Below are positions 1,479 to 47,709 of a stretch of DNA of 64,000 nucleotides, in pieces; within the stretch, counting starts at the first letter, position 1, and each line of letters starts with the position of its first letter. Made by a program: the position numbers and the translations under genes. Source of the DNA: an uncultured bacterium (lineage in GTDB: Bacteria; Babelota; Babeliae; Babelales; JACPOV01); assembly GCA_963744715.1 (NCBI GenBank), contig CAVUUR010000011.1, positions 1-64,000 of the forward strand. The letters run 5' to 3'. The notes under the pieces are model-generated. The model saw only the letters and a list, made by a program, of their open reading frames with translations, did not search any database and was not told where the DNA came from.

Positions 1479-3661
1479 ATTAATCTCCAGATACGTACAA
1501 ACGATGCCGGCTGCTAATAATCCACAATATAAGCCGAAAATTTTATTGCCGTGACGTTCATACCACGGTGTTTTGCTGAGAATAAGATTTTCGATGGGTC
1601 TTAAATCTTTAATATGTTTTATTGTTATAGGGGTACAGTTACCACGGCAGCAGTCATAATCAGAAAATCGAAGGCCATTATATAAGCTAAAATAGGGTGA
1701 ATTGTAGTGGTTTGCCGTATTAAGGGGTTTGCAGTTTAACAAGGCTGATTGCATAGCATTATAATATTCATTTTTTTCAACATCGTTACTAAAATGTAGT
1801 GATGAAATAAACTTTTTATTAGGTTCTTCTTGGCGGTTATTAGTATTATTTTTTGTACGTGCAAAGTAAGATGATACTTTATTATGTAATAATGAAATCA
1901 CTTTGCCCATACCAAAGAGTAAAGCATTGCCATACTGTTGAGAATAATATGATCGTTGTTCCAATATTTTTTTTTCAAGTTTTTGTAGATCAATGCTGGT
2001 TTTCTCATCATCTGCTAGATCAATTTGGCATTGCACTAGGTGTTTATAATAATCCGACACTGGTTTTGTTTCTTCCTCAAAAAGCGGAATGAATGGAAGT
2101 GAACGTTTCAAATTGGTAGAGAGTAATCCATGAGTATGTTGTTTTAATAATTGTGGAATTTTTTCTTTTGCTATTATTCCTTTTTTGGCTGCAAGGAGTG
2201 CAATAAAGGGATTGCCATGTTGCACTAGTGTTTTGATATTTTGTTCATCATCTGGTGCTGGGAACTGTAGTTTATCTGATAGTGGTTGTAAATCGGATTG
2301 ATCAAGTGCACTAATATGATCTTTGCTGAGCATCTCAACCACATTGATTCTTGGATATTCTAGTAGTAGTGTACGCATATCATCTTGAGTGCCATGTTTT
2401 ATTAGTATTGGAATAAATGGCATTCGATTTTCCATCTTTGCAATGGCGCTGCATATACTAGGGGATAGTGTAGGATATTTTGTTAGTAGTATATGTAAAT
2501 CTTCAAGCTCGTTTTCAAAAAGGTTCTCAATAGTTTTGTAGTTTGGTTTTATTTGCTGCTGAATTAATGTTTTAAGGTATTGTAATTCTTTATCAGTAAA
2601 TGATTTTGAGTTAAGGTCTACTGCCTTGTATGTGTTTGATGTATTATCACGGTATGTAGGAAGGCCGCTACCTATATACTGGGCAAAAATTATGCAAAAG
2701 GGATCATAAACATTAGGTTTAAGTAAATCATATTGCAATAAAAGTTCTAACAGTTCACCGTTTGCATTGTTTGTGGGTGTTGTGAAAGAGATGTTTCTCC
2801 CGGAAGGCGTCTTAAATTATTCATCCATGGTTGCATAGATTTAAGAGATAATATGTCCTCCAATATTTTGTAATTGGAAGAGTCATGCGATGCATGCTTA
2901 GCTAGTGCTTGTATGGTAAATATTGGATTGATGCCATATAGTAGGGCAGCATCCATAATTTGTTTATAACTGGAGGTTTGCTCTAGTTCTAATACGTTAA
3001 ATATTTTTTCTCTAGATTTAGGATCGGAATTATTGCTCAGAATAACATTCTCCAAATCTTCGGGTGCCTCGATAAATATATACTTATAATTCTCCCACGC
3101 TTCCCGGCCACAAAGTTTTTTTTGGGTATCGCTTTTTTCTATATTCTGTACTAAATAAGCACGATGATCACGGTGATTCAGGAGACCACTGTAATGAAGA
3201 TATTCTCGATTGCTCTCGGAAGAAGGATGTTTCACATGAATTTCAATCATCTGTAATAATTCTTTGCTGCTTATATTTTTTTGTCGTAAAAGACATTCCA
3301 CATGGTTATCAAAAGAATAAGTCATACATGCTTTATATACAGCATTAGGATAAAAGGGTTTTTCCTTGATCCATTTTTCAAAATTTTTCTTTAGTTCCTT
3401 AGGAATTATTTCGATGTGTTTGTCCAATGCTTGGCTAAAATCAGCTAAAATGCCATTTTTTTTATAATGTTGTTGAGCAAAAAAGCCAAAACATAAATGT
3501 TTTAAGGTATCGGGAGTATTTCCTTGTTGAATAATAGCTTTTTGATCCATTGCATAGTGATAATGAAATGAAGTACATAAATCAAGAAATAAAATACTCA
3601 GTATGCATGTTTTTAGTGTTGCCAAGCGTAACCCTAGTTGATGGTTTCTATTTGAAAACAA
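1353..3661 (-). CDS. Exported hypothetical protein with an ankyrin-like repeat and C-terminal TM helix; probably one gene split into ORFs 2747..3661 and 1353..2738
   Basis: Removing two single bases at ~2776-2787 yields GETSLHNTTNNANGELLELLLQY (ankyrin-like); N-terminal hydrophobic stretch ends HYA-MDQ; true stop probably near 1480. Confidence 0.55.
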
Positions 3662-3823
3662 GAAAATAATAACCCTTAGTTAAGAGTATAATATATTATA
3701 CTTCAGTGGTATATATGAAAAAATAGTTTTTTTCTACGGTGATAGGGAGTTGAGATGAATGTATTTTTTTGGTATAATTTTTTAGAAAATGTTTCTATAA
3801 AAAAATAATCTAACGGAGGATAT

Positions 3824-4453
3824 ATGAATATATTTTCTTTTGCTCAACATAGCGCCATTGCAATGCTTGCTATTTGCTTGTTAGGTAATAATAGTGCTTT
3901 TGGCGCCAGTGCAGTAGGTGATGAGCAACCCGTTGAGCAAAAAGTCATTGAGGCAGAAGATTCTTTGGATACGTTATTTGATCAATGGTTTACCTTAAGT
4001 AAAACTATTGGCACCAAAATGTATGAAGAGCTATGTGCTGATTTTGAAGATCCAGAAAATCCTGTTAATCAAAAAGATAATAATAAATCTCCGTGGCATA
4101 TTGATAGTGATGACAGTTCGGTAACTATTTCAATAACAATGCCCGTAGTTAATCGTGATAGTATTACTATTATTCCGGCGGGTGGTTATATTAAAGGAAC
4201 CGTGCAAGAGAACGGATATTATTGTAATTTTATTATTTCAAATTCTGATTTTCGTGTAACCATTCAACAAGAAAATACGGTTACCAAAGATGATAATAAA
4301 ACACATGCATACTCATCGAGCTCATTGCAGCAAGCGGTATTGTTACCAGCAGAGGTTGAAATTACTTCCAATGTAAAAGCAGAATATAAAGACAATATGT
4401 TAAAAATTACATTGTCGAAAAAACAAGCTCCTGCAAAAATTCCTGTTTTATAA
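3824..4453 (+). CDS. Hsp20/alpha-crystallin-like protein with N-terminal signal peptide
   Basis: C-terminal LPAEV...VKAEYKDNMLKITLSK...KIPV matches the Hsp20 consensus; hydrophobic N-terminus ending AFG. Confidence 0.7.
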   Translation: MNIFSFAQHSAIAMLAICLLGNNSAFGASAVGDEQPVEQKVIEAEDSLDTLFDQWFTLSKTIGTKMYEELCADFEDPENPVNQKDNNKSPWHIDSDDSSVTISITMPVVNRDSITIIPAGGYIKGTVQENGYYCNFIISNSDFRVTIQQENTVTKDDNKTHAYSSSSLQQAVLLPAEVEITSNVKAEYKDNMLKITLSKKQAPAKIPVL

Positions 4454-4504: not shown

Positions 4505-4519
4505 AATAGGCAATCAAGC

Positions 4520-6469: not shown

Positions 6470-6854
6470 TTAGATTGCTTTGCAAGCAAACGTGAAATTT
6501 TTGCCATCATAGGTAATAAGAACTTCTTGTGGTTTTGGATTTTGCATGGAAATCCTTTCCCATTCATCAAGAAGTTTAACAAACTCTGGTTGTTCGATAG
6601 GAAAGTAAGGACCACCATCTAGTTCTTCAGAATCTTGATCACTCACTATGATATAATTATCTTTTTTCTCAAGATGTGTTATATTGCCTCCGTAACTACT
6701 TAAATCATTTTTATCGACAGCCCATTCTTTAAACAGTGAACGTCGGCAACCAATATCGGATAAAAAACATGCAAGTATGGCCATTTCTTGGATCTGCATC
6801 TTTGTAACTGTAAAAGCCATCTTCCATAACAATTTTTAAATAATTTTTTTTCAT
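6470..6854 (-). CDS. Second immunity protein of the EndoU toxin locus (one frameshift near 6791)
   Basis: Paralog of 7082..7465; N-terminus MKKNYLKIVMEDGFYSYKDAD from ATG 6854 lies in another frame and aligns with MNNYAKIALRDIDYYLCSDSD. Confidence 0.75.
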
Positions 6855-6864
6855 CACATTATCC

Positions 6865-7080: not shown

Positions 7081-7081
7081 A

Positions 7082-7465: not shown

Positions 7466-7506
7466 AATTTCCTCATTTATATTAACACTGGATAAGCTGA
7501 CGTCAT

Positions 7507-21156: not shown

Positions 21157-22032
21157 ATGAATGTTATACAAAACATTAGGGCATGGGTGAATCGACCAAA
21201 TAAATCGACCATTGCTCAATACGTTGAAACATTAGTTGTTATTTTGCCGTTGGCATTTGTTATTAGAACGTTTTTTTATGGGTTATATCAAGTGCCGACT
21301 GGTTCTATGGAAGTTACCATGTTAACGGGGGAGCGTTTTTTTGCCGACAAATTTAGTATCTGGTTTTATCCGCCACAACGGGGTGATATTATAGCATTTA
21401 ATGCACCAACGTTTTCGTATTCAGATAACACAATTAAGCGGTTAATTGAACAGTATGTATGGGGACCTGAAAATTGGACAAAACGCGTTATTGCTATTCC
21501 CGGTGATCATATTAAAGGTGTTATCGAAGACGGTAAACCGGTGGTATATCTTAATGGAGAAAAATTGGAAGAACCATATATTAATCAGTATCCGCTCATT
21601 TCGGTATATCGTGAAGGAATAATGCCTCCATGGGTTCCACGTTCTTATGATCCACAAATTTCGTATGAACAGCAACCATTTTATAGCATGAGTGAACATG
21701 ATGTTGAACGGGCAAAAAGAATTTTGCGCTATTACGGCGAACAATCAATCCGTTATCCATATACGCCCGTACAATGTCAAGGGCGTACGGTCGATGAATA
21801 TGATATTACCTTAGGAGAACATCAATATTGGGTAATGGGAGATAATCGTCAGGGAAGTAATGACTCTCGTTTTTGGGGAGCTTTAGATGGTTCACTTATT
21901 CATGGCAAAATAACATTTAGGTTAATTTCTATCGATAGTAATGATTCGTGGTTAGTATTAGATATTATTAAACATCCTATTAGTTTCTGGAGTCGTGTGC
22001 GTTGGAGTCGTTTTTTTCAACGAGTTTATTAA
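21157..22032 (+). CDS. lepB: Signal peptidase I
   Basis: PTGSM, RGDII, KRVIAIPGD, GDNRQGSNDSRFWG. Confidence 0.95.
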   Translation: MNVIQNIRAWVNRPNKSTIAQYVETLVVILPLAFVIRTFFYGLYQVPTGSMEVTMLTGERFFADKFSIWFYPPQRGDIIAFNAPTFSYSDNTIKRLIEQYVWGPENWTKRVIAIPGDHIKGVIEDGKPVVYLNGEKLEEPYINQYPLISVYREGIMPPWVPRSYDPQISYEQQPFYSMSEHDVERAKRILRYYGEQSIRYPYTPVQCQGRTVDEYDITLGEHQYWVMGDNRQGSNDSRFWGALDGSLIHGKITFRLISIDSNDSWLVLDIIKHPISFWSRVRWSRFFQRVY

Positions 22033-23847: not shown

Positions 23848-24095
23848 TTCTGATCCAAGAATATTATGTTAATGGTGTTATCTAATAGTCTATAATTGCT
23901 AATGTAATAAAGAGTTTTTGACAGCGAACTTAATCCTCTCGGCATAAGAATGCATTTTTGATGTTAAACTATGTTGAGATTCTCGCGTGATACGTTGATT
24001 GCATAGTTGTTTTTTGACTTGTGAAAGACAATCAACTAGTATTGATGCTAGCGTGTAGTAGTAAGATTTAATTGGCTATGGTAGAAAGACTTTTT

Positions 24096-24632: not shown

Positions 24633-24639
24633 GTTTGGT

Positions 24640-27017: not shown

Positions 27018-27200
27018 CCACTGTTTCATTTTAGTTTTTCTTGTTCTTTTGTCAAACTTATGCGATTATCATAATAGCATTGTCATTGATATAGCAATAA
27101 AAAACATCGTTATTTTGCTAGAAATTATGTAATAATACCTAATGGGAAAATATTTAAAAGTTTTTTTGAGGATGTATGATTATGAATATGATACTAGTGA
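27018..27200 (+). repeat. Duplicated upstream/5' region, copy 1 (copy 2 at ~28560-28746; partial copy at ~29940-30035)
   Basis: Shared TTTAGTTTTTCTTGTTCTTTTGTCAAA...TGTCATTGAT...TTATTTTGCTA...AGGATGTATGAT(T/C)ATGAATATG. Confidence 0.85.
27028..27055 (-). promoter_or_regulatory. Sigma70-like promoter
   Basis: TTGACA-N16-TAAAAT upstream of the gene starting at 26968. Confidence 0.5.
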
Positions 27201-28336
27201 TAGTGGCAACTATAATGTGCATGAGTGATGTGTATAGTATGGAACAAGGATATCTACCTACAGAAAAACATATAACAAAGCGAGATTATGCTGAAGCCCA
27301 AACTACTGATAGGCAAAAAAAACATAAGAATGTGAAAAAGAATACTAATTCGCTCCATTATAAAGTGGCCTGTGATCATGCAGATTGTGATGAAGTTATG
27401 TATGCAAGGAAAGCGTCCAGTAATAGCCTAAAAGCGTTAGAAGGTTTATATGGATTATTTCGTGTGCATAACCGTGAAGATCATGATTTAGCCATTGAAG
27501 ATAATAAAAAAGAGTATGTATATCAAAGCCACTGGACAGTTTCTGAGGAGCAAATTAAAGAAAAGTATGCGTATATGCAATGTGAAGGTTGCTCCGAAAT
27601 ATTTTGTTGTCTTGATTCGTGTAATGTGGACAATAAAAAAGAAAATAATTTAATAATGAGATTTAAAACACATCTTAATACATGTAAAAACAAGAATACT
27701 AATCAGCAAGAGAAATTACGCAATCAAAGCAAGGGTGAGGCATTCAAGGACATAATACCGATAAACAATATAAAAAACGAAGTGCCTACATTTGAATCAA
27801 CGTGTTCTGCTGACAATTGTGATTTTTCTTTTGATTCAATTGAGTCTGAACATGTAGAAAACATAATGAAAAAACATATACGGTTCGCGCATGGCAATAT
27901 TATAGAAAAGCCAGTAATTACAGAGGCTAGAAAAAAAATAGCCGAATTAGTAGATAAGATGTGTCTAGTAATGTGCATAGAGCCACGATGCAATTTTATA
28001 ATGAATTCAGAAAAAAATGATACAAACAACCTGCGCAGGTTGTTTTATCAACATATAAAGGCAGAGCACTTTTTTGTCGGATTAGATGGTATTGATACGT
28101 ATATTAGAACAAGAATAGTAAGAAAACCTTATGAACAATATGAGAAGGATATAAAAAATATACAGAGTTCTGCGTTACAGTGCGAAAAATGTCGTCTGGC
28201 GATTACAAAACCAAGTAATGTGCACAAAGAACTATTTGACAAAAAACACATATTTTTACATAAGAAAAAAAATCAACTTGTTGGCGATGATCTAGCCATT
28301 ATTGCTGCAGAAGTCTTGGGTTGCCAATTTGAATGA
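27176..28336 (+). CDS. Exported multi-zinc-finger protein, paralog 1
   Basis: Signal peptide, basic patch RQKKHKNVKK, five Cx2-4C...Hx3-4(H/C) motifs. Confidence 0.75.
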   Translation: MIMNMILVIVATIMCMSDVYSMEQGYLPTEKHITKRDYAEAQTTDRQKKHKNVKKNTNSLHYKVACDHADCDEVMYARKASSNSLKALEGLYGLFRVHNREDHDLAIEDNKKEYVYQSHWTVSEEQIKEKYAYMQCEGCSEIFCCLDSCNVDNKKENNLIMRFKTHLNTCKNKNTNQQEKLRNQSKGEAFKDIIPINNIKNEVPTFESTCSADNCDFSFDSIESEHVENIMKKHIRFAHGNIIEKPVITEARKKIAELVDKMCLVMCIEPRCNFIMNSEKNDTNNLRRLFYQHIKAEHFFVGLDGIDTYIRTRIVRKPYEQYEKDIKNIQSSALQCEKCRLAITKPSNVHKELFDKKHIFLHKKKNQLVGDDLAIIAAEVLGCQFE

Positions 28337-28721: not shown

Positions 28722-29882
28722 ATGATCATGAATATGCTGATAGTGCTGGTGGCAAGTATATTGTGCATGAGCGATATGTATGGTATGGAGCAAGGATATT
28801 TACCCACAGAAAAACGTACAATGAAGCGAGATCAAACTACTGATAAGTCAAAAAAACATAAAAAAGAAGAAGTAGCTGTGGCGATTAGTTATAGTGAGCC
28901 GTGCTATCATAAAGTTCTCTGTGATCAGAAAAATTGTGATCACGTTGTATTTTCACACAAAAAATCAAATAATAAGGAAAAAGGATTAAAAGGTTTATCT
29001 AAATTATTTAATAAGCATATTAAGAGTATTCACCACTTGCCCACGGCAGATGATAAAGAAAAGTATATAAACCAAACCCACTGGACGGTTTCTGGGCAGG
29101 AAATTAAAGAAAAGTATATGTATCTGCAATGTCAAGGTTGCTTCTCAGTATTCTGTTGTATCGATTCTTATAATATGAGTAATAAAAAACAAGGTGAGTT
29201 AATGAATAGATTTAAAACACATCTTAGTAATTGCGAAAATAAGGATACAGATCAGCAGAATAAATTATCAAAGAGAGGCAGATATGATGGATTGGGAGAT
29301 GTAATAACGCTAAACAATATAGAAAATGCGGTAAATGCATTTCAATCAAAGTGTACTGCTGCTGATTGTGGTTTTTCCTTTGATTCAATTGAGCGTGAGC
29401 ATGTAGAAAATATGATGGAAAAACATATACAGTTCGATCATAAAGGCGGTATTGAAATGCCTATTATCAAGGATGTGAAAAAAAAATTAATAGAATTATC
29501 AGATAAGGTACTTCTATTAATGTGTATGGTGCCGAAATGCAATAATATAACGATAGCAGGGAAAAATAATACGAAACAACTTCAGAATTTATTTGAAAGA
29601 CATATTAAAGACGATCACGTTGCCATATCGGCTGATATTACAAGTTATATTAGAACAAATACCGTAAAAAAAACTTATGGACAATATGAAATAGATCTTG
29701 CAGAAAAACTGAATTCCCCATTACAATGCCAAATATGTCAAGTGGGGCTTAAAGGGGAAACCAATAAAGTGCATAAAGAAATATTTGAAAAGAAGCATGC
29801 ATTTCTACATACTAGCGGGGATAAGACTCCTCTTGATGATCTTGTTACAGCCATCACACTTGCCGGATTGAGTGGGCTCTAA
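28722..29882 (+). CDS. Exported multi-zinc-finger protein, paralog 2
   Basis: Same length and Cys/His pattern as paralog 1; KSKKHKK patch. Confidence 0.75.
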   Translation: MIMNMLIVLVASILCMSDMYGMEQGYLPTEKRTMKRDQTTDKSKKHKKEEVAVAISYSEPCYHKVLCDQKNCDHVVFSHKKSNNKEKGLKGLSKLFNKHIKSIHHLPTADDKEKYINQTHWTVSGQEIKEKYMYLQCQGCFSVFCCIDSYNMSNKKQGELMNRFKTHLSNCENKDTDQQNKLSKRGRYDGLGDVITLNNIENAVNAFQSKCTAADCGFSFDSIEREHVENMMEKHIQFDHKGGIEMPIIKDVKKKLIELSDKVLLLMCMVPKCNNITIAGKNNTKQLQNLFERHIKDDHVAISADITSYIRTNTVKKTYGQYEIDLAEKLNSPLQCQICQVGLKGETNKVHKEIFEKKHAFLHTSGDKTPLDDLVTAITLAGLSGL

Positions 29883-29999: not shown

Positions 30000-31064
30000 A
30001 TGACTATGAACAGGATGATAGTGATAGTGGCAAGCATATGGTGCATGAACAATGTGTATGGTATGGAACAAGAAGAATATGTTCTTACAAAAAAGCGTAA
30101 AATAGATAGAGTACCTGCAACAATTAATAATGATCAGAAACCATATTATTATAAAGTTCTCTGCCCTCAGGAAGATTGTAATGAAGTTGTATCCGTAAAA
30201 AAAACGCAGAAAGAATTAAACGTGTTAAGAATGTCATTAGATAAGCACTTTGTATTGAGTCATGCGTTAAATAATGAGCAAATAAAGCAAAAAGGAGATT
30301 ATGTAGGTGATAATCACTGGGTTGTAACGAGAGAACAGATTAAAAAAAGCTATATACATGCGGAGTGTAAACACTGTGATAAATTATTTTGTTCTGATAA
30401 TAATTTCAATAACAATCGCGATATAAAAGATTTTTTTACCAGGCATTTAAAGACGTGTACTAAAAAAAAACGAGCGGTTGATCAAGAAGTAACATTAATT
30501 AATAAAAATAAGCAGGTAAAGACATATGGATTAGCTTGTACAGCTGCTCATTGTATTTTTTCCTGTCGATCAGTCGATCTTGAATATATAAAAAGGATAA
30601 TGATAAAACATAGTCAGATTAAACATAAAGAGAGCGATTTTAAAATGGGAGATATTAAAGAGGAACTTGAAAATATAGACACCTTATACGGTAAAACTTT
30701 TCTTATAATGTGTCTCGAACCATTATGTAGTACAATAATATATGATAAAAGCCATAAAAAATCGTTACGAGAATCTTTTGTGAGGCATTTAAAATTTAAG
30801 CATAAGATTAAATCTGTAAAAGTGATTAATAACGAGATTTTGAACTATTGTAATAATGTTATGATTGAAAAACCTCTCAGCTATAATGCAGATGAAAAAA
30901 AAATAAAGTCTTTAACGTGTATTGCTTGTAAGGAATCTACTAAAGCAGATTGCGAAGCATTTTTAAGTAAACATAATTATTTACATCATAGAAAAGATGA
31001 GATTTGTGTTATTGATAATTTTTTAATACGAACTGCAGTTGCTTCCATGCGTGAAATTATTTAA
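30000..31064 (+). CDS. Exported multi-zinc-finger protein, paralog 3
   Basis: Conserved Cys/His pattern; KKRKI and KKKR patches. Confidence 0.75.
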   Translation: MTMNRMIVIVASIWCMNNVYGMEQEEYVLTKKRKIDRVPATINNDQKPYYYKVLCPQEDCNEVVSVKKTQKELNVLRMSLDKHFVLSHALNNEQIKQKGDYVGDNHWVVTREQIKKSYIHAECKHCDKLFCSDNNFNNNRDIKDFFTRHLKTCTKKKRAVDQEVTLINKNKQVKTYGLACTAAHCIFSCRSVDLEYIKRIMIKHSQIKHKESDFKMGDIKEELENIDTLYGKTFLIMCLEPLCSTIIYDKSHKKSLRESFVRHLKFKHKIKSVKVINNEILNYCNNVMIEKPLSYNADEKKIKSLTCIACKESTKADCEAFLSKHNYLHHRKDEICVIDNFLIRTAVASMREII

Positions 31065-34539: not shown

Positions 34540-37500
34540 ATGAAATATCAAAAAAATTCTTTATTCTCAGGTCTTTTTCTAGCGTTGATAGCTATGCAAT
34601 GCGCAGTAAAACCAATGGAGATAACAGAGATTCCAGCCGAAGCCTGGTATGGATTTGCAAAATTCTATGAACAAAATAATAACACTGAACGTGCTGTTGA
34701 ATGTTTAGAAATATCTGCAGAACTTGATTATCCTAAAGGTTTATTCGCTTTGGGAAAATATTATTTAGGAGATACTTCTACCTATTCTCAAGGTTTAGGA
34801 AATATTCGGAAGGCGATAACACAAGATGCATCATTATCTGGACGTGCGGTTGATATTTCTACAAGAAGGACTATTGATACACAACGTGATTTGGCAAAAA
34901 TTTTATTAGAATGTTCTGATGAAAAAGTAAAAAAAGATGGCGTACAGATAACTGAAAACATACTGAAGAAAGTTTTAGAAAACAATAAGCTCCATAAAAA
35001 TACGATGCGCCAAAGTGTGCTTAGTAAAGTTTATAATTCCCCCTGCTATGCACAAGCAAAAGAAATACTGGGTCATACTGATAGTTTTAAAGAGTATGCT
35101 GGATTATTGGAATATCGAGCTTTTTGTTCAAATATAACTCATGACGCACATACAGCAATTAACTATTTATCCCCTATTGGCAATTCTAGGGCATATAGTT
35201 GTTTAGCGGATTTATTTTTGCGTGACCATGATCATAAAATGGCTTATGAGTATTGCAAAAAAATATTAGAAGATCCTAAAAAGAATGAATATGAACAAAT
35301 AGCACGGCACCATTTAAAAACGCTCGAAGAGCGTGGGTGGGTAGAGGCTCGTATTTATTTGCTTGGTCAATATGCGCAAATTAAGGATAAAACCAAAGAT
35401 GATCATGCAGCTATAAAAATATTGCTGAAAAAACTAACAGTGGCGGATGGCCAACTATTACGAGAAAATGACAAGGCTTATCGGGTATTGAAAAAATACG
35501 CTTATGAAAGCACTGCTCCAGTATTGCAAAAATATTTTGCTCAGTATGTAATGAACGGTATAGATGATCGATGGGAGCAGCAAGAGGCCATTAGTCAGTT
35601 AGAAAAGTTAGCTCAACGTAGGGATAATGAAGCAAGCTTTTTATTAATTAAAAAATATCTCAACGATAGTAAAATGTTGGCGAGTGCCACAAGGTTAATA
35701 CTAAATAATGAAATACCAGAACATTCACAAAAAGAATTTGAAACCCTTTTCAGGGGAAAGTTTCAAGATTTTCTTGCCTTAGCGAAAGAAGGCGATCCCT
35801 GCGTCTCATGGTTATGTGGTTACGGATATTGTCATGAATTTGGGCAATTAAAAAGTGCCGAATCTACTACTAAGGCACTCGATTATTTTGCTCGATCATG
35901 TTTGCAGCAAGATTGTCCACTAGAAATATTTGAAAGTTGTTTAGGTTACCTACAGCGTATGGCTATTGGGATAGAAAAATCATGTGATGAACATAGCATA
36001 AGAGCATGGGGATATCTTTGTGGCATATATATTCATACCGATGCTCCATCCTATTTGATAGAGGAATCTTGTAATAAAATCAATGAACTTATACTTAGTA
36101 ACCAAAAAGACAAAGCAATTGCTCTACATTTTTTAATGATATTGAAAGAAATAAAAGTATTTGACGCATTAAAAAAAAATATTAGTGGAAAATCACCAAA
36201 CTCAGCTGTGCTCTTAGCACGTTGTTATGCATTGAGTGCCGCGATCAAAAAAAGTGTTATTGATGGTGATAACAATACGGTACTTGAACAATTATTACAT
36301 AGTGAAGAATATTTAGCAGAAGCACAGCACCTTGGCGCTGACGTAGCTGATATTATGCGTCGAACAAAAAGTTTAATTGGCATAGAGTATCAAAAATTGA
36401 AGCGGTATGATAAGGCAATAGAATATTTTAAACAAGGGTCTGAGGAAGTTTTTCTTAATTTAGCCAAAATATATATAGAGCATAAAAATAATCTCAAAGA
36501 TGGCGCTAGTTGGTTAAAAAAAGCTATGGAAAATGAAAAACCTGAAGCAGCAGTATTATACGCAAATTTTATGGCCACTCCCAAATTGGCAGAGCACGGG
36601 GTTACTAAAGAACTATTAACCAAGTATGCAGATATTATCAGTAATTTTGTTACTAAAGAAGAAATTTCGATACTCGATAAGTGCGGCTTTGAGTGTCCGG
36701 TTGAGGCATTAGCGCAAATAAAAGAAGATGACAAGGTTGATGTAACTAATCCCTCAATTATCTATTTACAGGGTGTCGATGCATTCTATCATGATAACTA
36801 TAGTGATGCACTGGCATATTTTAAACAAGTGGAAGAGAGTATTTTTTTGGCTAAGGGATACAAAGCCTTGATTTTGCGCAAGAGTGATGCAACGGTAAAC
36901 GAATCGTTAGAGGTTGCAACAGAATTTTTACAGGGATGTAGCAATCATTCTATAGTTTCCGCCCAATTTTTTTTACAAAAATCAGTATGGATTATGATTA
37001 ACAGAATGGCTCATGATGGAAATATTTCTGCACAGTGTGTATTCATTAAAGAATCTGTTAATCAGTATCTAAGCCCAGCCATTAAAGATGATAAGCATAA
37101 GCATGGAAAATTGATCGATGATTGGCTAATTAGTTTTAAAGAAAAATTGGATTCATTATCATTACAAGAATTTGGTAGCACACAAGAAACGCTCAGAAAG
37201 CAGAAGGTTTACTTATCTCTGAAAAAATTTTTTCAATCGAGTAGATCTTGTTCTTGGGTTAATTTGTTAATGGAAATTATTAAGAAGAATCTTAATATTT
37301 TCGATATGCCAGACTCTTGTTATATAGAAGATATCATAAGCTATTACACCGGGGTTAAAGATAAAAAAGAAGAACATAACAGAATAGGTGAATTTCTTAG
37401 TGGATTATATACAAAAAAAGCTAGAGACGCTGCAAATTTGAAGAATATGGCTAATTCACGTACGTTATATGAAAAAGCATTAGAGTATGACAAAAATAAT

Positions 37501-38763
37501 CAAGAAGCGCATATTGCATTGGGTATGTTGTTGTTCGGTACTGAGTCAGATCAAGATTCTACTAAAAAGGCATTAAATCACTTTCATGAAGCCGCAGATG
37601 TAGGTAATAACGCTATTGCTCAGGGTTATTTGGGGCATATATATTGCGGACTCTATGACCTGAATATTAAAAAAGATGTTGATAAAGGCCTTTCTTATAT
37701 GGAAAAAGTGGCGAAGGCGGGACAAGGTGTGGTGTACGTTACGATAGCTTCTCTGTATTTGGTAGAAAAAAATAATAGGAAAAAAGCAGAAGAGTATCTT
37801 AAACTTGCGGAAGAGAATGATTGCGCATTAGAAGCAAAGTTTTACAGAGGACATATCGCATACACGGAAAAAAAATATAAAGATGCAAAGGAGCATTTTT
37901 CTGATCTACTTTCGACGGATGATTCAAGAGTCATGTGTTATTTATTATTAATAGAATTGGAGCAATCATCCAAGGTGAGCGATAACGTTACCCAGCTTCT
38001 TAAAAATATTGTTGATAAAATGCGAACCGATGAAGTCGCCATTAAAAGTGTTCTATCATTAGAGGTTGTACAAAAATTAACAAAATTTATTTCCAGTGAT
38101 CCTAAGAATCAATTTAATATATATTATAAGCAAATGGGTGAGATTATCATCGAGGATTGGCGTATGCATAAGACGGCTTATTTAGATAAGCTTGAGGAGA
38201 TGCTAAAAAAATTCAAAGTTACTGACGAAAGCTGTATAGCTGAGATTGAGCAATTTATCATCGATAAAAAGATAGCAGAGGATGCTAAAGGTGGTGATGG
38301 TCGTGCTGCATACTGTATGGCATATTTTGCATTGAAAAAAAGAAATCTCAATACTCAGCAAGCAGAAACGGATGAAGATATTGAACAATGGTTGAATACT
38401 GCTAAAAGTGATAAAGGTTATAGAGCGCGAGCCAGTATGCTTTTATTATCTCGGTATTTAGTGAAGGTTGAAGAGGAAGTTAATATCATCGATAAAATTA
38501 AATTATTAACGCATGGAGCATGCCTCATAATTGATACTGTAGCTCAAAAAGATCTTACGGTTTCACAACGGATATACGAAGATCTTAAACATAAGATTGC
38601 AACGGTAAAAGAGAGTATGGTAACAATACAAAACAATTTAGAAGACGCTGAAAAGATAAAAATGATTGGTTCATTTATAGAAAAATTAAATGAATGTGAA
38701 GAAAAAATAGATGGTTTTTTGAGCCAAGTAGCACAACAATCTTTATCAGATAATAATAAATGA
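34540..38763 (+). CDS. Large exported SEL1/TPR-repeat protein (1407 aa)
   Basis: Signal peptide; SEL1-like repeats such as AQGYLGHIYCG...KDVDKGLSYMEKVAKAG. Confidence 0.8.
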   Translation: MKYQKNSLFSGLFLALIAMQCAVKPMEITEIPAEAWYGFAKFYEQNNNTERAVECLEISAELDYPKGLFALGKYYLGDTSTYSQGLGNIRKAITQDASLSGRAVDISTRRTIDTQRDLAKILLECSDEKVKKDGVQITENILKKVLENNKLHKNTMRQSVLSKVYNSPCYAQAKEILGHTDSFKEYAGLLEYRAFCSNITHDAHTAINYLSPIGNSRAYSCLADLFLRDHDHKMAYEYCKKILEDPKKNEYEQIARHHLKTLEERGWVEARIYLLGQYAQIKDKTKDDHAAIKILLKKLTVADGQLLRENDKAYRVLKKYAYESTAPVLQKYFAQYVMNGIDDRWEQQEAISQLEKLAQRRDNEASFLLIKKYLNDSKMLASATRLILNNEIPEHSQKEFETLFRGKFQDFLALAKEGDPCVSWLCGYGYCHEFGQLKSAESTTKALDYFARSCLQQDCPLEIFESCLGYLQRMAIGIEKSCDEHSIRAWGYLCGIYIHTDAPSYLIEESCNKINELILSNQKDKAIALHFLMILKEIKVFDALKKNISGKSPNSAVLLARCYALSAAIKKSVIDGDNNTVLEQLLHSEEYLAEAQHLGADVADIMRRTKSLIGIEYQKLKRYDKAIEYFKQGSEEVFLNLAKIYIEHKNNLKDGASWLKKAMENEKPEAAVLYANFMATPKLAEHGVTKELLTKYADIISNFVTKEEISILDKCGFECPVEALAQIKEDDKVDVTNPSIIYLQGVDAFYHDNYSDALAYFKQVEESIFLAKGYKALILRKSDATVNESLEVATEFLQGCSNHSIVSAQFFLQKSVWIMINRMAHDGNISAQCVFIKESVNQYLSPAIKDDKHKHGKLIDDWLISFKEKLDSLSLQEFGSTQETLRKQKVYLSLKKFFQSSRSCSWVNLLMEIIKKNLNIFDMPDSCYIEDIISYYTGVKDKKEEHNRIGEFLSGLYTKKARDAANLKNMANSRTLYEKALEYDKNNQEAHIALGMLLFGTESDQDSTKKALNHFHEAADVGNNAIAQGYLGHIYCGLYDLNIKKDVDKGLSYMEKVAKAGQGVVYVTIASLYLVEKNNRKKAEEYLKLAEENDCALEAKFYRGHIAYTEKKYKDAKEHFSDLLSTDDSRVMCYLLLIELEQSSKVSDNVTQLLKNIVDKMRTDEVAIKSVLSLEVVQKLTKFISSDPKNQFNIYYKQMGEIIIEDWRMHKTAYLDKLEEMLKKFKVTDESCIAEIEQFIIDKKIAEDAKGGDGRAAYCMAYFALKKRNLNTQQAETDEDIEQWLNTAKSDKGYRARASMLLLSRYLVKVEEEVNIIDKIKLLTHGACLIIDTVAQKDLTVSQRIYEDLKHKIATVKESMVTIQNNLEDAEKIKMIGSFIEKLNECEEKIDGFLSQVAQQSLSDNNK

Positions 38764-38797: not shown

Positions 38798-41700
38798 ATG
38801 AATAAAAATTTTATGATTGGCCTGATACTCCATGGGATAATACCCAATGGGTTATGTATGGATAATCAGCTTGCTAATACCAGTGAACAAAAATATACAG
38901 TTGTTTCATCTATTGATTTTTATGAAAACAGAATATATCCAAATAACTGCGATTTCTTATCATTCGAATCAGCCAAAAATAAGATTCTATCTGATGACGT
39001 TACAAAAAAGGAAAATGCAAGCGGCGAAATGATAAAATTAATCAATAAGAGCTATCCACCAGCATTGGTTTATGCAGGAATGTCTGCATTGACAGCCAAA
39101 AAAGATTTGGATGCAGAATATTATTTTAAAATGCTGTCTGATTTAGGACATCCGGTGGGACAAGAACAACTAGGTATGCTCTATAAAAATGCAGTTAATC
39201 CTGAAATGAAGGCTTGTTGGCTTCCGTACGTTGCCCAAGCTGCATTGCCACGGTTTTTAGGTCAACAATATAATAATGGAGAAATGAATAATACTGTTTA
39301 CCATCATACTTCTGCAATAAGAACGCTTGCTGATCATTATGCTAACGTCGATACAACACGTTATGATTTGCGATATCATTATACAGAGATTGCGGCATTA
39401 CAAGAAAAAAAAGGGGGCAAGTGGCTTGAGGCGTTAATGAATATGCACATAAGTAATAATAATTTTTCAAATGCATATACGTTTTTAAAGAACGTTATAA
39501 GTAATAACGCTGAATCGGCGGATCGTAAAAAAATTGCATATACACATTTAAAAGAGCTGGCAATTGTGCATGAATATGGAGATGCGCAATTTTTTTTAAT
39601 TACCAAAATGCTTAATACAAAAAATAATGAATCTGATATTACATTGTCCCCTGAGGATTTAATAACGATAGGTAGTTGTATAGTACAAAGTGCGGACAAA
39701 GAAATTATAGCAAATTTTTTTAAGCCCGGTTTATTAGGAGCGTTGGCGCATTTTGATAAGAACATAAGGAATTCTTCAGCCGAACAGAAACAGGACCTCT
39801 TAACCGTGCGCGGATTATTAGCCCATAAAAGCTTTGAGTATCGATTAGTTAAAGATGATCAATTGGCTACGGTTATTGATTTTTTAAAGCAAGCAGATCA
39901 AAAAAAGCCACAAGTGTTGTTAGGGTTATCCGACATTTATAGATACACTATGCAAATAAAAGAAGCATGTACTACTCTAATAGGTTTTGTGGAAAAAAAT
40001 GATATCACCAATGCAGAACGGCAATGGTATGATAAAATAATAGTAAATTTATTTGATGCAATTGTAACAGAAAAGAAATCCACGGAAGCCGCCTGTTTTC
40101 TAAAAACTATCGCACATAATAAAGATAATTTTTTTACGCAAGAGGATATTAGAATATTAGTAACTATTATTGGTGCTAAAGATTATAAAAAATTGCATGC
40201 GTATTTTAATGAGCAGCAAGATCCAGAGTTGTGGTTTATCGTAGGTAGAACATTATATGAATTTGAAAAAAATAAGCTTTTAGCACAAAAAGGAAATAAA
40301 CAACTACCAAAAAAACCAACAAAAAATATAAAGGTTACCGGTATTGAGTACTTACAAAAATCGTGTGCAGAAAATAACCCCAAAGCACTGCTCTATTGTC
40401 TTATTAATGATATAGCAGAAAAAAATAATGGTACATCAAAGGATGCTGCACATAGTAGGATGGTACTTTTTAATAAAGCATTACACATCATAGAACAGGA
40501 AAATACTTACAGATCGCAAGAGTTGTTTTTGCTAGAGCAAGCAGCAGAATCTTTAGAAAAAGATGCTTTTGATAATGCCGATATTGCTTACAAACTTTCC
40601 GTATTTTATGGCAAAGAGCACGGCGATCTGGCAATTAATGAAGCAAAAAGTAAAAAATATTTTACCCGAGCACGGAAATTAGGAAATGGGCATGCGTTAT
40701 GGCAAGAGTATAAATCAAAAAATGAAAAATGGATTCCGGGTGAAGAAGTTGCTCTATTGTGGGATATAATCAAAAAAATTAATGGTACTGATACGGGTGA
40801 TTTAGAAATACGAAGTACCATAACAGAGCGTTTGAGCTATTTAGCTACTGTTGTTCCTAGTGCCTGCTATGTTCTTGCGCATGAATTGCTAAAAGATTCT
40901 GGTAAAAAAATTAGTGAGGGTAACGCTGAGGCTGTTGTTAACTATATTAATCAGGCGGAAGCTCATATTAGTGCTATGCAATGTCCTTCATTGGCAACAC
41001 TTAATAGCATTAAAAAGACCGGTATTATTGATCAGGCAGTAAAACTAAATAATGGCACCATATTATTTACATTGGGCAAACTATATTCTTCTCGATTTTT
41101 AAAAGATCAAGCATCATTGGATGATACATTCCGTGCAGAAACTTGGTTATCTGAGAATATAGGTATTTTTGGAAATGAATCTGATAGAAAATTGTTAATG
41201 AATATACAACAAACACTTGGAGCCATATTATTTAATAAAAAACGCCAAGGTGAAGCGGAAAAAATGTGGTTGAAGGCAATCGAAAATAATATTGCGAGTG
41301 ATAATATTTATACGCCTATTTTGCTGGCATACAGCTATTTAAAAAATGGAGAAAACGATATCGAAAAAATACAAAGAGGTATTGATCTATTAGTTTCAAA
41401 GCTAGACAACATTGATGATGCTTCTATTTACTTGGGAAATTTTTTGATTGACAGGCCAGATCTTGTTGAAAAAGTTAAGTTTCCAACAGAACGTATTATT
41501 GAGCGGCTTAGTTACTTAGCAAGTTGTTATAATCAAGAAGCAGGAGAATTGCTAAAAAAACTCGAAAAAGAATATACATTGCTCCCCATTGAAGAATTTA
41601 AACGTGAAATAGGATATTCCGAAGATACTGCCGATGCCAAGATTATCCATAAATTAGCAGTGGCACATTTTTTTAATGAGAATTCTGAAGCTGCATTTAC

Positions 41701-43084
41701 ATTATTTAAACAAGCTCAAACGTTAGGAAATTTTTTGGCTGAGGGCTATCTTGGAATTATGTATTTGTATAGCAAGGACATACCGGTAGTGGAAAAAGAA
41801 TCGCGACGGCAATATGCGTTAACATCATTTATATCGTTCTTTGATTATCCTATTCTCGAGGAAAGTAGCATAGAAGTCACGGCTTTATTGAATTATTCAT
41901 TACATGGATTAAAAGAAATATGTGGCGATACTTCCGATAATAATAACATTGTGATCAATTATATTGCTCAATATAACTTAATAAATAATTTAATTAAATT
42001 ATATCAATATACCCTATTAAAAGAGTATTTAGACGAGGCAGTTCCTTGGTTTGTTAATTTACAAAAATGTATTGATGACAAAGATTTGATGAGTATGATT
42101 AAAGCAGATGAAAGGGGAAAAAAAGCAATTGAAATGTTGAATATTTGTTTTGAAAATGACCCTTCTAGCGCGGGATGTTTGTATATGGAGCTAGTTAGAA
42201 ATAAACTCGCTAAAAAAGAAGCGCCAATAAAAGAAGATATTGAGCGTTATATAACTATTGCAGATGACTATTTAAAAAAAGCTTTGCATGCAAACAATGA
42301 TCCCGAAGTTGGACAGCATTTAACGTTGCTTGCGTTAGTAAAAGCCGAGGCGTTATCGAAATATGATAATCCTAATTATAAAGAAGCAGATAGATTATTT
42401 GAGGAAGTTTTAAACAGTATGCCTTCGTGTGGAGCGGCCGCTATCGAACGTGCTAAACTATATTTTGATAATAAAATAGGTATGAAAAAAGAAGTTGCTG
42501 TAAAAAAAGGCTTGGAGATTTTGCTTAAAGGTTATGAAGCTGGATGCCGTGAAATATTAATGGCTTTAGGAAATATATACAGGCATGGAACTTGTTTTGG
42601 CTGCTCAATCTCCGTAGCAAAGGATAATAAAAAAGCTCGTGAGTATTATGAAAAGGCATTGTCGGAAAGTAGGTTATCTCCACAAAGTAAGCGATTGGAA
42701 AAAGAAGCTGCTAAAGCACTGATACCTATGTATATTGAAGCAGGAACCATCGATGAGGTTTTCAAGGGAATTAAGGACAAAGAAAAAAGGCTACTAAATT
42801 TGGGAAGGATATGCTTTGATGTGCAGAATTATTCGGAAGCGTTAAAATATTTTCTTAGTAACGATATGCCATTAAAATATCGCAATAAAGCATTAGTTTA
42901 TATAGCAAAAATTTACTCAATAAACAATAATATTACATTGGCAGAAAAGACTCTTGCTAAGATTGAATTTAAAGATGATGATATTGTAATGAATAAAAAA
43001 ATTATAAACCAAATTATATCCTTTAATCTCTGGGAATTATTGAATAAAGTCCAAGAGGAGAAAAAAGCAATCAACAATGCATAG
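38798..43084 (+). CDS. Large exported SEL1/TPR-repeat protein (~1430 aa)
   Basis: Signal-like N-terminus; SEL1-like repeats such as ALGNIYRHG...KDNKKAREYYEKA and AEGYLGIMY. Confidence 0.8.
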   Translation: MNKNFMIGLILHGIIPNGLCMDNQLANTSEQKYTVVSSIDFYENRIYPNNCDFLSFESAKNKILSDDVTKKENASGEMIKLINKSYPPALVYAGMSALTAKKDLDAEYYFKMLSDLGHPVGQEQLGMLYKNAVNPEMKACWLPYVAQAALPRFLGQQYNNGEMNNTVYHHTSAIRTLADHYANVDTTRYDLRYHYTEIAALQEKKGGKWLEALMNMHISNNNFSNAYTFLKNVISNNAESADRKKIAYTHLKELAIVHEYGDAQFFLITKMLNTKNNESDITLSPEDLITIGSCIVQSADKEIIANFFKPGLLGALAHFDKNIRNSSAEQKQDLLTVRGLLAHKSFEYRLVKDDQLATVIDFLKQADQKKPQVLLGLSDIYRYTMQIKEACTTLIGFVEKNDITNAERQWYDKIIVNLFDAIVTEKKSTEAACFLKTIAHNKDNFFTQEDIRILVTIIGAKDYKKLHAYFNEQQDPELWFIVGRTLYEFEKNKLLAQKGNKQLPKKPTKNIKVTGIEYLQKSCAENNPKALLYCLINDIAEKNNGTSKDAAHSRMVLFNKALHIIEQENTYRSQELFLLEQAAESLEKDAFDNADIAYKLSVFYGKEHGDLAINEAKSKKYFTRARKLGNGHALWQEYKSKNEKWIPGEEVALLWDIIKKINGTDTGDLEIRSTITERLSYLATVVPSACYVLAHELLKDSGKKISEGNAEAVVNYINQAEAHISAMQCPSLATLNSIKKTGIIDQAVKLNNGTILFTLGKLYSSRFLKDQASLDDTFRAETWLSENIGIFGNESDRKLLMNIQQTLGAILFNKKRQGEAEKMWLKAIENNIASDNIYTPILLAYSYLKNGENDIEKIQRGIDLLVSKLDNIDDASIYLGNFLIDRPDLVEKVKFPTERIIERLSYLASCYNQEAGELLKKLEKEYTLLPIEEFKREIGYSEDTADAKIIHKLAVAHFFNENSEAAFTLFKQAQTLGNFLAEGYLGIMYLYSKDIPVVEKESRRQYALTSFISFFDYPILEESSIEVTALLNYSLHGLKEICGDTSDNNNIVINYIAQYNLINNLIKLYQYTLLKEYLDEAVPWFVNLQKCIDDKDLMSMIKADERGKKAIEMLNICFENDPSSAGCLYMELVRNKLAKKEAPIKEDIERYITIADDYLKKALHANNDPEVGQHLTLLALVKAEALSKYDNPNYKEADRLFEEVLNSMPSCGAAAIERAKLYFDNKIGMKKEVAVKKGLEILLKGYEAGCREILMALGNIYRHGTCFGCSISVAKDNKKAREYYEKALSESRLSPQSKRLEKEAAKALIPMYIEAGTIDEVFKGIKDKEKRLLNLGRICFDVQNYSEALKYFLSNDMPLKYRNKALVYIAKIYSINNNITLAEKTLAKIEFKDDDIVMNKKIINQIISFNLWELLNKVQEEKKAINNA

Positions 43085-45147: not shown

Positions 45148-45152
45148 GGAAA

Positions 45153-45869: not shown

Positions 45870-45990
45870 CTACTGTTTTTTGCTTTAATTATCGTATTAT
45901 GAATTGATATACTACATTACAATTAGTTTATTATGTTATTTTTACACTATTGCATGAGATTACTGATATCCTAAAAAAGGAAAAATTAGT

Positions 45991-47709
45991 ATGAAGGTAT
46001 ATAGTTTACTATTGATGACCATGTATTCGTATGTAGCATTAGGCATGGAGAATCCTTATGAAAAAGAATTCGGCACTATAACTACGTATGCCAACTGCGG
46101 AGAAGATGCAGAATTCGCTATAACATATAAAGATATGGTTTTATTACGAGAATCAAAAACTATTGCAGAAATAGTTGATAGTGTAAACGATTTTGGTATC
46201 GATAAACCAAATATTGTCCTTCCTATAGTTTCAGCACAGGAATATCAAAATACGTTTATTCCTTATTTGAGAAAAATACATAATGTCGGCGATGATAATC
46301 AAAAAAAAATCGATCTTAAATTGGAGCTCGTTGAAACTGACTATTCATTGTTATTAAAAATTGCCGGCTATGCGCATTATTTTGATATTTCAGATTTAGA
46401 ACGCTATGCAGTATGTGCACTATCAAAAAAATTAACTAATGAGAAAGGTATGTCTTTATTTTTTAATAATAAAGCTCATTGCCAACAGATATCCAATATC
46501 GTTCCACATCTTAGCCAGAGTTTAGTTTCGCATATAGTTGAGGATGAGCAAGCAGTATTACAAGATTTGTTTTTTCAACCATCTTTTAACTCAATTTTAC
46601 AAAAAACCTTAGAAAATAAAAGAGAAACGTTTGACCTAGTTTTTGGGCCAGATGATTCTTTAGCATGTATGCCACCCGAAAAAACTAGATCTTGTCTTAC
46701 AAAAAGTTTCTTCGTGTGGGAAGGTCAATATACTAATCCGCAAGCAATACAGTCAAATGAAAGACACGGTGTGGAAATTTCATTTTTGTCGAGCATTGCG
46801 CCCATTGCTAGTAGAAATGGTATAATATTGTTAAATGAAAAATTTAAACCATCAAAAATATTTTATTTGTCCAATTTTTGTACGATGTATAGAAATGCGG
46901 AAAGTAATAAAACGCATTTTTTAAAAGATAATTCTAAGGCTGCCATGAACTCCTTAGCAATAAGTCCTTCGAAAGAACTTATTGCTAGTTCAAATGTAAA
47001 TAAGGAAATTTTTGTATGGCGTTATGATGGAACATTAGTTCGATCATGGTTAAAAGATACCGATTCATTTGAAGGGGGTAGATTATCTTTAGCATTTCAT
47101 CCGTATGAACATTTATTAGCAACGGGACGTTGTCAATTGCGTTTATTAGATATTGATGACGGCACTTGGCGAACGGGTGATAAAAGTATACACGGTATTA
47201 GCGGGTTACTTTTTAGTCCTGATGGAAAAATGCTGGTTGCTAGTAGTTCAAATAAAATCTATGTAAATAAGGTTAAGACGTTGCAGAAAAAACGCGAATT
47301 AACCGATGTCAAGCCCCCTATCTGCATAGCATTTAGTAATGATTCATCATTATTGGCTAGTGGTAATTACAATACAATAAAGCTTTGGAACCCAAAAAAA
47401 GGTTACTGTATAAAAACTATTACCTTTACAACTAATATTTCTACATCTGCCCTTGCCTTTAATGCGAATGATACGTTGTTAGCAGCAGGATTTTCTGACA
47501 GCCACAAAATACATGTGTATACCTTAGATAAATTCAAAAAATTTTTAGATGAATCTCGGCGTTTGACGTTGCCACAAATTCTCTTACTGTTAGGCTCGAA
47601 AAAAGCAGGTTCCTCTTTTGATCCGAACGATGAGAAATATGCACACTTCAAAGATTGCTATACCAGTTTAAATCGCATCCGGCGGTTCTTAGGGAAAAAA
47701 AGTAATTAA
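45991..47709 (+). CDS. Exported WD40-repeat protein with a Skp1/BTB-like N-terminal domain
   Basis: Signal ends ALG-MEN; SKTIAEIV...IVLPIVS...AHYFDISDL Skp1-like pattern; WD repeats (FSPDGKMLVAS, LASGNYNTIKLWN). Confidence 0.8.
   Translation: MKVYSLLLMTMYSYVALGMENPYEKEFGTITTYANCGEDAEFAITYKDMVLLRESKTIAEIVDSVNDFGIDKPNIVLPIVSAQEYQNTFIPYLRKIHNVGDDNQKKIDLKLELVETDYSLLLKIAGYAHYFDISDLERYAVCALSKKLTNEKGMSLFFNNKAHCQQISNIVPHLSQSLVSHIVEDEQAVLQDLFFQPSFNSILQKTLENKRETFDLVFGPDDSLACMPPEKTRSCLTKSFFVWEGQYTNPQAIQSNERHGVEISFLSSIAPIASRNGIILLNEKFKPSKIFYLSNFCTMYRNAESNKTHFLKDNSKAAMNSLAISPSKELIASSNVNKEIFVWRYDGTLVRSWLKDTDSFEGGRLSLAFHPYEHLLATGRCQLRLLDIDDGTWRTGDKSIHGISGLLFSPDGKMLVASSSNKIYVNKVKTLQKKRELTDVKPPICIAFSNDSSLLASGNYNTIKLWNPKKGYCIKTITFTTNISTSALAFNANDTLLAAGFSDSHKIHVYTLDKFKKFLDESRRLTLPQILLLLGSKKAGSSFDPNDEKYAHFKDCYTSLNRIRRFLGKKSN

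Follow-up and report, generated by a model that had tools for sequence, protein, structure and literature searches.

Why do so many unrelated exported proteins of one uncultured Babelales bacterium carry a methionine and an acidic residue directly behind a signal-like leader? The question is raised by a 64,000-nucleotide stretch of DNA, positions 1 to 64,000 of contig C11 of genome G000, which is called the window here. An earlier note on this DNA had described eight proteins from five unrelated families in which Met-Glu or Met-Asp (M[ED]) follows a hydrophobic stretch, and had proposed that cleavage leaves a host-like N-terminus or exposes a tag for a second export step. All eight junctions are present in the window. 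The pattern is real and far larger than was described, with 108 proteins in 67 families across the genome. The motif is confined to eukaryote-like proteins, and G000 also encodes a type II secretion set. On balance, it is somewhat probable that the cut by signal peptidase I (SPase I) makes these proteins host-safe: after type II export, their new N-terminus would evade the N-degron pathways of eukaryotes.

The G000 assembly is 1.26 Mb long, 86% complete and about 35% GC. Its contigs (C numbers) C1 and C8, at 61% and 46% GC, may represent contamination, rRNA or a mobile element and were excluded from all counts. Other G numbers denote further sampled genomes, mostly of the same phylum. G000 holds ATP/ADP translocases, 56 Ank_2 matches and two secretins, all known traits of TM6/Dependentiae (PMC4776705, PMC4378268, PMC6561590), and its host is probably a protist, to judge from the hosts of its relatives. 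All cleavage sites given below were predicted from sequence with home-made predictors.

Sec-Type Leaders with a Predicted Cut before Methionine

A first scan of G000 looked for M[ED] preceded by a hydrophobic stretch, whatever the residue next to the Met, and returned 126 genes; by our own count A, G, S, C, P or T precedes the Met in 119 of them. A second rule was blind to the motif, scoring the h-region and the −3/−1 residues alone with +1 and +2 unseen. It placed sites in 423 of the 436 leader-bearing proteins without a further transmembrane segment, drawn from 1098 genes. Met occupies blind +1 in 100/423 proteins where 8 are expected from a 1.9% background, and M[ED] occupies +1/+2 in 66/423 where 0.9 are expected. 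At each of the other offsets from −8 to +11, except −1, Met occurs 5-21 times. The earlier note had allowed that predicted sites might fall elsewhere; they fall directly before the Met. After merging of these results, 462 proteins bear a leader and 108 of them have M[ED]; BLAST groups the 108 into 67 families, 50 of which are singletons.

A logistic model that used positions −16 to −1 only, under family-grouped cross-validation, recovered the exact Met site in 83/108 proteins. The same model gave 262 confident sites among the 354 proteins without M[ED], and Met was still the commonest +1 residue there (32/262). The leaders have the traits of Sec/SPase I substrates: a basic n-region, a hydrophobic h-region, a small residue at −1 and a small or aliphatic one at −3. 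Within a set of 112 M[ED] genes the −3 residue is mostly L, I, V, C or M, and hydrophobic (NTN) codons make up 64-81% at −14 to −8, a region whose hydrophobicity was used in selection. Pro stands at −1 in 7/112, an atypical c-region. The cut at the Met bond is predicted to be made by the signal peptidase LepB.

The eight junctions of the window are as follows, with the predicted cut shown as a slash.

2747..3661, − strand: orphan protein, the weakest member; leader from TTG 3661 or 3625; HYA/MDQ, Met codon 3550
25889..26968, − strand: orphan protein; 19-aa leader from GTG 26968; IKA/MEQ, Met codon 26911
27176..28336, + strand: Cys/His-rich (C2H2-like) paralog 1; leader, VYS/MEQ, Met codon 27239
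28722..29882, + strand: Cys/His-rich paralog 2, 51% identical to paralog 1; MYG/MEQ, Met codon 28785
30000..31064, + strand: Cys/His-rich paralog 3, 35% identical to paralog 1; VYG/MEQ, Met codon 30063
34540..38763, + strand: 1407-aa TPR/Sel1 protein; 25-aa leader; VKP/MEI, Met codon 34615, Pro at −1
38798..43084, + strand: TPR/Sel1 protein of about 1430 aa; 20-aa leader from ATG 38798; GLC/MDN, Met codon 38858
45991..47709, + strand: WD40 protein; 18-aa leader with AAGGA upstream; ALG/MEN, Met codon 46045

The leader at 2747-3661 is the weakest of the eight, with TTG starts only and His at −3. This protein had been called ankyrin-like, a label that found no support: it has no Pfam match (E≤0.01) and no PDB match (E≤10), the Ank_2 profile has no match on contig C11, and the best Atlas score, 0.80, is a lead only. 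Position 26968, which had been given as the Met of the second orphan, is its GTG start codon; with this protein as query, no homolog was found in 150 other genomes of the order. The zinc-finger label of the Cys/His trio stands as far as four invariant C..C..H..H sets go, and no Pfam match rises above threshold; M-E-Q is invariant in the trio, at 35-51% identity. Pfam bears out the SEL1 labels given to the proteins at 34540 and 38792, as TPR/Sel1. For the protein labelled Skp1-WD40, Pfam supports the WD40 part, and a homolog search with it returned generic WD40 matches only; a Skp1/BTB N-terminal domain is unsupported by Pfam, PDB sequence search and Atlas. The exported protein at 63092-63481 lacks the motif, as had been noted: it reads S-M-H-S, with the Met best taken as the −3 residue. 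The M-E of an M23 protein (20270), which has Val at −1 and lies behind a long anchor, was treated as chance.

The Leader Is Open and Has a Normal Ribosome-Binding Site

If the inner ATG were the true start, or a second one, the leader would be untranslated or two proteoforms would be made. Any Met can initiate, and the leader at 2747-3661 has TTG starts only. Yet a Shine-Dalgarno score of at least 4 was found at 0/112 inner ATGs of the M[ED] genes, as against 46/112 outer starts when the last candidate was taken and 71/112 when the best was taken. The inner ATGs fall below even random internal Met codons (124/2535); ordinary first ATGs gave 81/182. At least 19 open codons lie upstream of the inner Met in all 112 genes, and the outer starts are ATG in 86, TTG in 18 and GTG in 8. 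An inner start is therefore very improbable, and this possible refutation named in the earlier note did not occur. A nucleotide-level cause, an SD-like GGAG formed within ATG-GAG, was also rejected, because GAG makes up only 18/112 codons.

The Second Residue Is Conserved as Protein

The residue behind the Met is strongly biased. Among the 100 blind-site Mets, +2 is E in 41, D in 25, Q in 8, N in 5, basic in 8, small in 8 and hydrophobic in 5, while among the 323 proteins with another +1 residue it is E/D in 48, small in 110 and hydrophobic in 87. All four E/D codons are in use, so the constraint acts on the protein, and Q and N are the next commonest residues.

This bias bears on the idea that the Met is the relic start codon of a captured host or viral open reading frame (ORF) that was given a leader and has no function. 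Such an ORF would begin precisely with Met, and the carriers are fast-evolving and lineage-specific, as the 50 singletons and the orphan at 25889-26968 illustrate. One G000 protein (C12:70866) reads I-E where its sister paralogs read M-D or M-E. However, E/D follows only 13/182 true start codons of G000 as against 66/100 of these Mets, and the use of both E and D through four codons, with Q/N next, points to selection on the protein. The WD40 family keeps M[ED] in 13/14 members while leaders and residues from +3 onward vary. Grafting may account for the origin of the Met, not for its retention, and a relic start is distinctly unlikely. Conservation of +1/+2 far above the flanks was seen only among paralogs and distant family members; a search for orthologs on which to test selection at +1/+2 found five distant matches only.

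C12:70866 is one of four neighbouring genes (with C12:69777, 71985 and 73087) whose leaders look alike and close with C-K-P. M-D/M-E comes next in three of them; the I-E of the fourth is possibly a loss of the motif.

Eukaryote-Like Proteins Carry the Motif and Envelope Proteins Do Not

Of 486 leader-bearing candidates, 362 were compared with Pfam: 168 of the 193 small-residue-Met junctions, and 194 others from the retrieved loci whose site score was high enough. Most of the 362 had no match. Two classes were drawn up. The eukaryote-like class (n=50, eight of them added beyond the main Pfam run) holds ankyrin, WD40, LRR, Sel1 and C2H2 proteins. The envelope/enzyme class (n=58) holds solute-binding proteins, OmpA, OmpH, amidases, glycosidases, proteases, thioredoxins, HADs, fasciclins, BatD, Hsp20, EndoU, one TPR protein and others. 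False positives from the cytoplasm and matches with a membrane anchor (UvrB, HflX, EF-Tu-like, FtsK, TamB, SurA, MreC, PBP and M23, for example) were removed by hand ahead of the count, together with one Met-junction TPR protein.

Met is at +1 in 33/50 eukaryote-like proteins (36/50 by eye) and in 3/58 envelope/enzyme proteins. M[ED] is found in 27/50 and 0/58, so the enrichment that the earlier note expected among effector-like proteins is present. Proline at +2 shields the N-terminal residue from degron recognition, and an Arg/N-degron-type first residue was counted here only when +2 is not Pro. Such residues begin 5/50 eukaryote-like proteins and 40/58 envelope/enzyme proteins. The few non-Met effectors of G000 begin mostly with Ala, Gly or x-Pro. 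The p-values of this split (about 1e-11) are overstated, because the 50 proteins fall mostly in three BLAST families and because the predictor was trained on the same M[ED] sites. An ankyrin subfamily (C9:65558, C7:33892, C6:143171, C6:126421 and C6:145691) has a predicted mature start of Y-P or L-P.

The split was replicated in relatives with a predictor trained on G000 only and proteins chosen by family, not motif, in genomes mostly picked earlier as motif-rich. The WD40 sample comprised 35 loci, 32 of them distinct with a 5' end and 28 leader-like; the clostripain sample comprised 30 loci, 26 distinct and 21 leader-like. The predicted +1 residue is Met in 19/28 WD40 proteins (M[ED] in 10), the rest being mostly Ala/Ser or near misses. 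It is Met in 0/21 clostripains, of which 10/21 begin with a degron-type residue by our own count.

A BC-box-like motif, which we take to be Elongin-binding, occurs in 8/108 M[ED] proteins, 1/32 other-Met proteins and 0/230 non-Met proteins; F-box-like matches run the opposite way (1 vs 4). The eight (C12:112165, 113446, 110909 and 21395; C4:37721 and 16373; C7:68623; C6:159627) carry it about 30 residues or less from the mature start, mostly before WD40 repeats. They are candidate Elongin/Cullin substrate adaptors. The presence of such motifs on M[ED] proteins points to the host cytosol as their place of action.

A Proposed Host-Safe N-Terminus

Sec export removes the initiator Met, and therefore the residue behind the leader is what the host sees. 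Cutting a leader normally exposes whatever residue comes next; in most envelope proteins of G000 it would be one on which eukaryotic UBR ligases or arginyl-transferase act. Arg/N-degrons are formed by R, K, H, F, W, Y, L and I and, after modification, by D, E, N, Q and C; unacetylated Met is likewise a recognition signal when a hydrophobic residue, read by UBR ligases, or a basic one comes next (PMC11735805). Methionine aminopeptidase cuts off Met before small residues (PMC8037982). A Sec-type leader cut by SPase I directly before Met-Glu or Met-Asp would leave a start that is untrimmed by this aminopeptidase and carries no basic, bulky hydrophobic or D/E/N/Q degron, nor a Met-hydrophobic or Met-basic one. 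Inside the protist host the exported protein would present an N-terminus resembling that of a host cytosolic protein, and this host-style start would probably let the effector escape N-degron degradation. We infer Sec export, the position of the cut, passage through the type II system and entry into the host cytosol.

The earlier proposal of a host-like, stabilising Met N-terminus is thus the best-supported reading. Its NatB part is doubtful. NatB acetylates the class M-D, M-E, M-N and M-Q (PMC11735805), which makes up 79/100 of the Met termini if the predicted cut is right, and degron and Met-hydrophobic starts are avoided. However, NatB acts co-translationally on the initiator Met (PMC11735805), and these effectors are made on bacterial ribosomes, with an internal Met exposed by a bacterial protease. 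Any acetylation in the host would have to be post-translational; acetylation by NatB is possible and would not be required.

Motif-poor relatives favour other residues at this position. The ankyrin proteins of G041 begin with Ala in 21/55 and with Met in 8/55, and those of G040 with Ser/Ala in 16/33. Pooled over relatives, ankyrin, WD40 and LRR proteins begin with a degron-type residue in 26/113, as against 175/369 other exported proteins (p 4e-6). In G041 more than 40 short ankyrin genes with export leaders form an array (C1:1388000-1432000; L241, L242); Pro is frequent at −1 or −2 of these leaders, and the mature parts are mostly Ala-first. G098, at 1.7 Mb, has 141 WD40-propeller matches, the largest expansion among the 15 genomes searched.

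Several points weigh against a host-safe terminus. Ala and Ser would be equally safe from the Arg/N-degron pathway, and therefore degron avoidance by itself does not account for the preference for Met plus an acidic residue. Unacetylated NatB-type termini may themselves be targets of UBR1/UBR4 in flies and mice (PMC11735805). Single relatives give splits that are not significant (G040, 10/33 vs 33/74, p 0.20; G041, 9/55 vs 12/34, p 0.07), as does the comparison of eukaryote-like proteins of relatives with envelope homologs (26/113 vs 8/18, p 0.08), and the scored ankyrin proteins of G019 are degron-type in 4/4. The predictor behind the class split in G000 had M[ED] rows in its training. Plausible host-acting enzymes, namely EndoU, GH18 and a DOT1-like protein, lack the Met. 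Finally, early in infection Babela has been described within a vacuole (PMC4378268), which makes arrival in the host cytosol less certain.

The DOT1-like protein (C12:94184; L011:1-651) is an exported methyltransferase without the motif (PF08123, E 6e-23) and is possibly a host-chromatin effector.

Range across the Phylum and Beyond

A fixed DNA proxy, which catches 26/108 known G000 sites, was compared with a control in which the Met is shifted by one codon. It gave 1641 matches in 151 genomes of the phylum as against 645 for the control. At least 15 matches were found in 39/151 genomes and in 1/151 for the control. By family, the genomes at this threshold number 7/8 in f1, 21/55 in f2, 2/7 in f7, 6/20 in f8, 1/3 in f13, 1/1 in f17 and 1/1 in f18, with none in 11 other families. 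The earlier suggestion that the motif could define a lineage-specific effector export code thus overstates its uniqueness: it is patchy, reaching 7 of the 18 families sampled. Direct reading of 36-80 kb per genome, counting small-residue M[ED] junctions per leader, gave 8/38 in G001, 6/21 in G079, 2/35 in G005 and 0-1 in eight others.

Outside the phylum, Chlamydiae loci showed the junction in 3/122 by direct reading, and 15 Chlamydiae-type genomes gave 110 proxy matches vs 55, none reaching 15, a ratio equal to that of an alphaproteobacterial outgroup (Finniella order). The 61 genomes of that outgroup gave 482 vs 254 for a backward control, with 6 genomes at 15 or more. Direct reading there found 3/33 in G124, 0/15 in G123 and 0/11 in G122; G121 has a proxy count of 22 vs 2.

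Export Machinery

The window holds both export genes that had been named in it, a GspE/PilB ATPase and lepB, each present by Pfam.

21157..22032, + strand: signal peptidase I (LepB), PF10502, E 1e-36
24072..25809, + strand: MshEN-domain protein and GspE/PilB ATPase of a type II secretion/type IV pilus set, PF05157 and PF00437

LepB is the sole S26 match in this 86% complete genome, and its named relatives are from Ca. Babeliales, at 59-70% identity. A dedicated signal peptidase for Met junctions was considered and rejected, as G000 shows this one match only. The type II set of G000 comprises GspE, two GspD, two GspF loci, a prepilin peptidase and pseudopilin-like genes, whose N_methyl matches lie at or just below cut-off. 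One GspF is split over two ORFs with four pseudopilin-like genes adjoining (C10:529-5921; L033), the second is intact (C2:90205-91185), and the two secretins stand in tandem on C3, each longer than 800 aa. The type IV and type III markers VirB4 and FlhA/SctV have no match in the 86% complete genome. Type II secretion is the only system detected in Babela (PMC4378268), and PMC4776705 reports the gene set to be conserved throughout TM6.

This machinery could read the motif itself. M[ED] might be a sorting tag recognised by a periplasmic chaperone, by one of the two secretins, in vesicle loading or at the vacuole membrane, and so direct effectors to the host much as the processed PEXEL terminus does in Plasmodium. 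A narrow two-residue consensus on unrelated proteins of 67 families, the clean split from envelope proteins, and two secretins and two GspF loci with VirB4 and FlhA/SctV unmatched are all consistent with a tag, which would also account for Met over Ala/Ser. The earlier note had offered this as its other branch, and it comes out weaker: Met is absent by eye in 14/50 eukaryote-like exported proteins, and in many families the DNA proxy does not rise above background. Type II systems are generally taken to recognise features of the folded substrate, which also counts against a tag. The ankyrins of G040 and G041 are mostly without Met, although the type II set is conserved in TM6 (PMC4776705). A sorting tag is therefore unlikely, though not negligible.

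The bacterium might instead favour the motif for its own processing, through a P1'/P2' preference of SPase I, or of one paralog of it, for Met-acidic or a periplasmic modification of the terminus. Stabilisation of exported proteins through their +1 residue has a precedent (PMC10653852), the Pro-bearing c-regions are non-standard, and many Babeliales relatives have 2-4 signal peptidase I (S26) matches, often as tandem pairs (G041, G039, G048, G007). In G000, however, the single LepB must also cut envelope proteins without Met, and envelope-resident proteins are spared, the reverse of the Bacteroidetes Q-rule described below. Own processing is highly unlikely. A rule confined to host-like proteins implies that its reader is probably in the host.

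Neighbouring Genes in the Window

The two giant Sel1 genes interrupt a set of iron-sulfur suf genes (sufC-, sufB-, sufD-, sufS- and sufU-like, as read from their ORFs) at 31174-34467, 43077-44279 and 54301-54672. What resembles sufB appears as short ORFs in differing frames (32142-32883). On the − strand, 6470-9525 holds an exported EndoU nuclease, behind which come two small ORFs that resemble each other (7082-7465 and 6470-6832), with a second EndoU-like C-terminal fragment at 6865-7278; the region looks like a polymorphic toxin with immunity genes. Leaders nearly identical to those of this region occur at C7:143326 and C9:77060.

Comparison with Known Systems

The Bacteroidetes Q-rule is likewise a lineage rule for the residue that SPase I exposes, and it stabilises exported proteins (PMC5837995, PMC10653852). 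Its Gln is cyclised by a periplasmic glutaminyl cyclase and covers most SPase I substrates (PMC5837995). Here, in contrast, the motif is Met plus an acidic residue, is found on about one quarter of leader-bearing proteins and is absent from envelope enzymes; Gln is at +1 in 33/423 proteins as against 100/423 for Met. In Plasmodium, PEXEL processing leaves a mature terminus of x-E/Q/D on host-targeted proteins. The analogy lies in a cleavage that leaves an acidic residue at position 2. Plasmodium is a eukaryotic parasite, however, and G000 has no RxL before the cut (Leu is at −1 in 0/126 unfiltered junctions) and no plasmepsin.

The closest functional parallel is found in the SVM effectors of phytoplasmas, SAP54/PHYL1 and SAP11 (PF12113), which have a Sec leader and act in eukaryotic cells. 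In our own reading of the cut sites in supplement 5 of PMC8026896, SAP54 homologs have M-N/M-D behind the leader in 23/25, and SAP11 homologs begin with A/S/T in 24/24, with Pro next in 23. The phytoplasma surface protein Amp mostly starts with D-D (PMC8026896, own reading). The like junction of SAP54 also weakens the claim that the motif is unique to one lineage. The parts of PMC8026896 available to us make no mention of this methionine. Phytoplasmas are wall-less and the SVM effectors share one leader family, unlike the diverse leaders, 67 families and outer-membrane secretin found here. PF12113 shows no homology in G000; the best match, at E 0.12 and 13.8 bits, lies under the cut-off of 22.4, and control genomes behave alike.

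Babela massiliensis and Chromulinavorax destructans resemble G000 in the leader on most ankyrins (79/126; 78%), in type II secretion as the only system detected and in two gspD copies (PMC4378268, PMC6561590, PMC4776705). The available parts of these accounts contain no +1/+2 rule and no N-terminal separation of effectors from envelope proteins. Open-licence PMC and bioRxiv full texts yielded no Met-first rule in Dependentiae, which subscription papers or supplements could hold, and no N-degron shaping of Sec-exported effectors; PMC13515050, in the part available, does not mention a Met-first rule either. What is new here is the effector/envelope split with its replication, the logic of the second residue, the Ala/Ser alternative and the phytoplasma parallel.

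Implications for Babeliales Effectors

Signal peptides are reported on up to 44% of proteins in Babeliales (PMC6561590). Most of their exported proteins have no known family, and there has been no prior way to tell effector from envelope. The two-residue rule flags 108 candidate host-targeted proteins in G000, most without a Pfam match, and a rough extrapolation from the DNA proxy suggests a few thousand across the phylum. More tentatively, and with rather less confidence, Sec-exporting Babeliales and phytoplasmas may have convergently evolved a host N-terminus code by which the effector is treated as self. Such a code would consist of Met-acidic or of Ala, Ser or x-Pro behind the SPase I site, with post-translational acetylation possible. 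If this is true, the first two mature residues would predict which of the hundreds of unassigned exported proteins in uncultured protist parasites work in the host cytosol. A general question thereby becomes accessible to experiment: do the N-degron pathways of eukaryotes shape how Sec-exported bacterial effectors begin?

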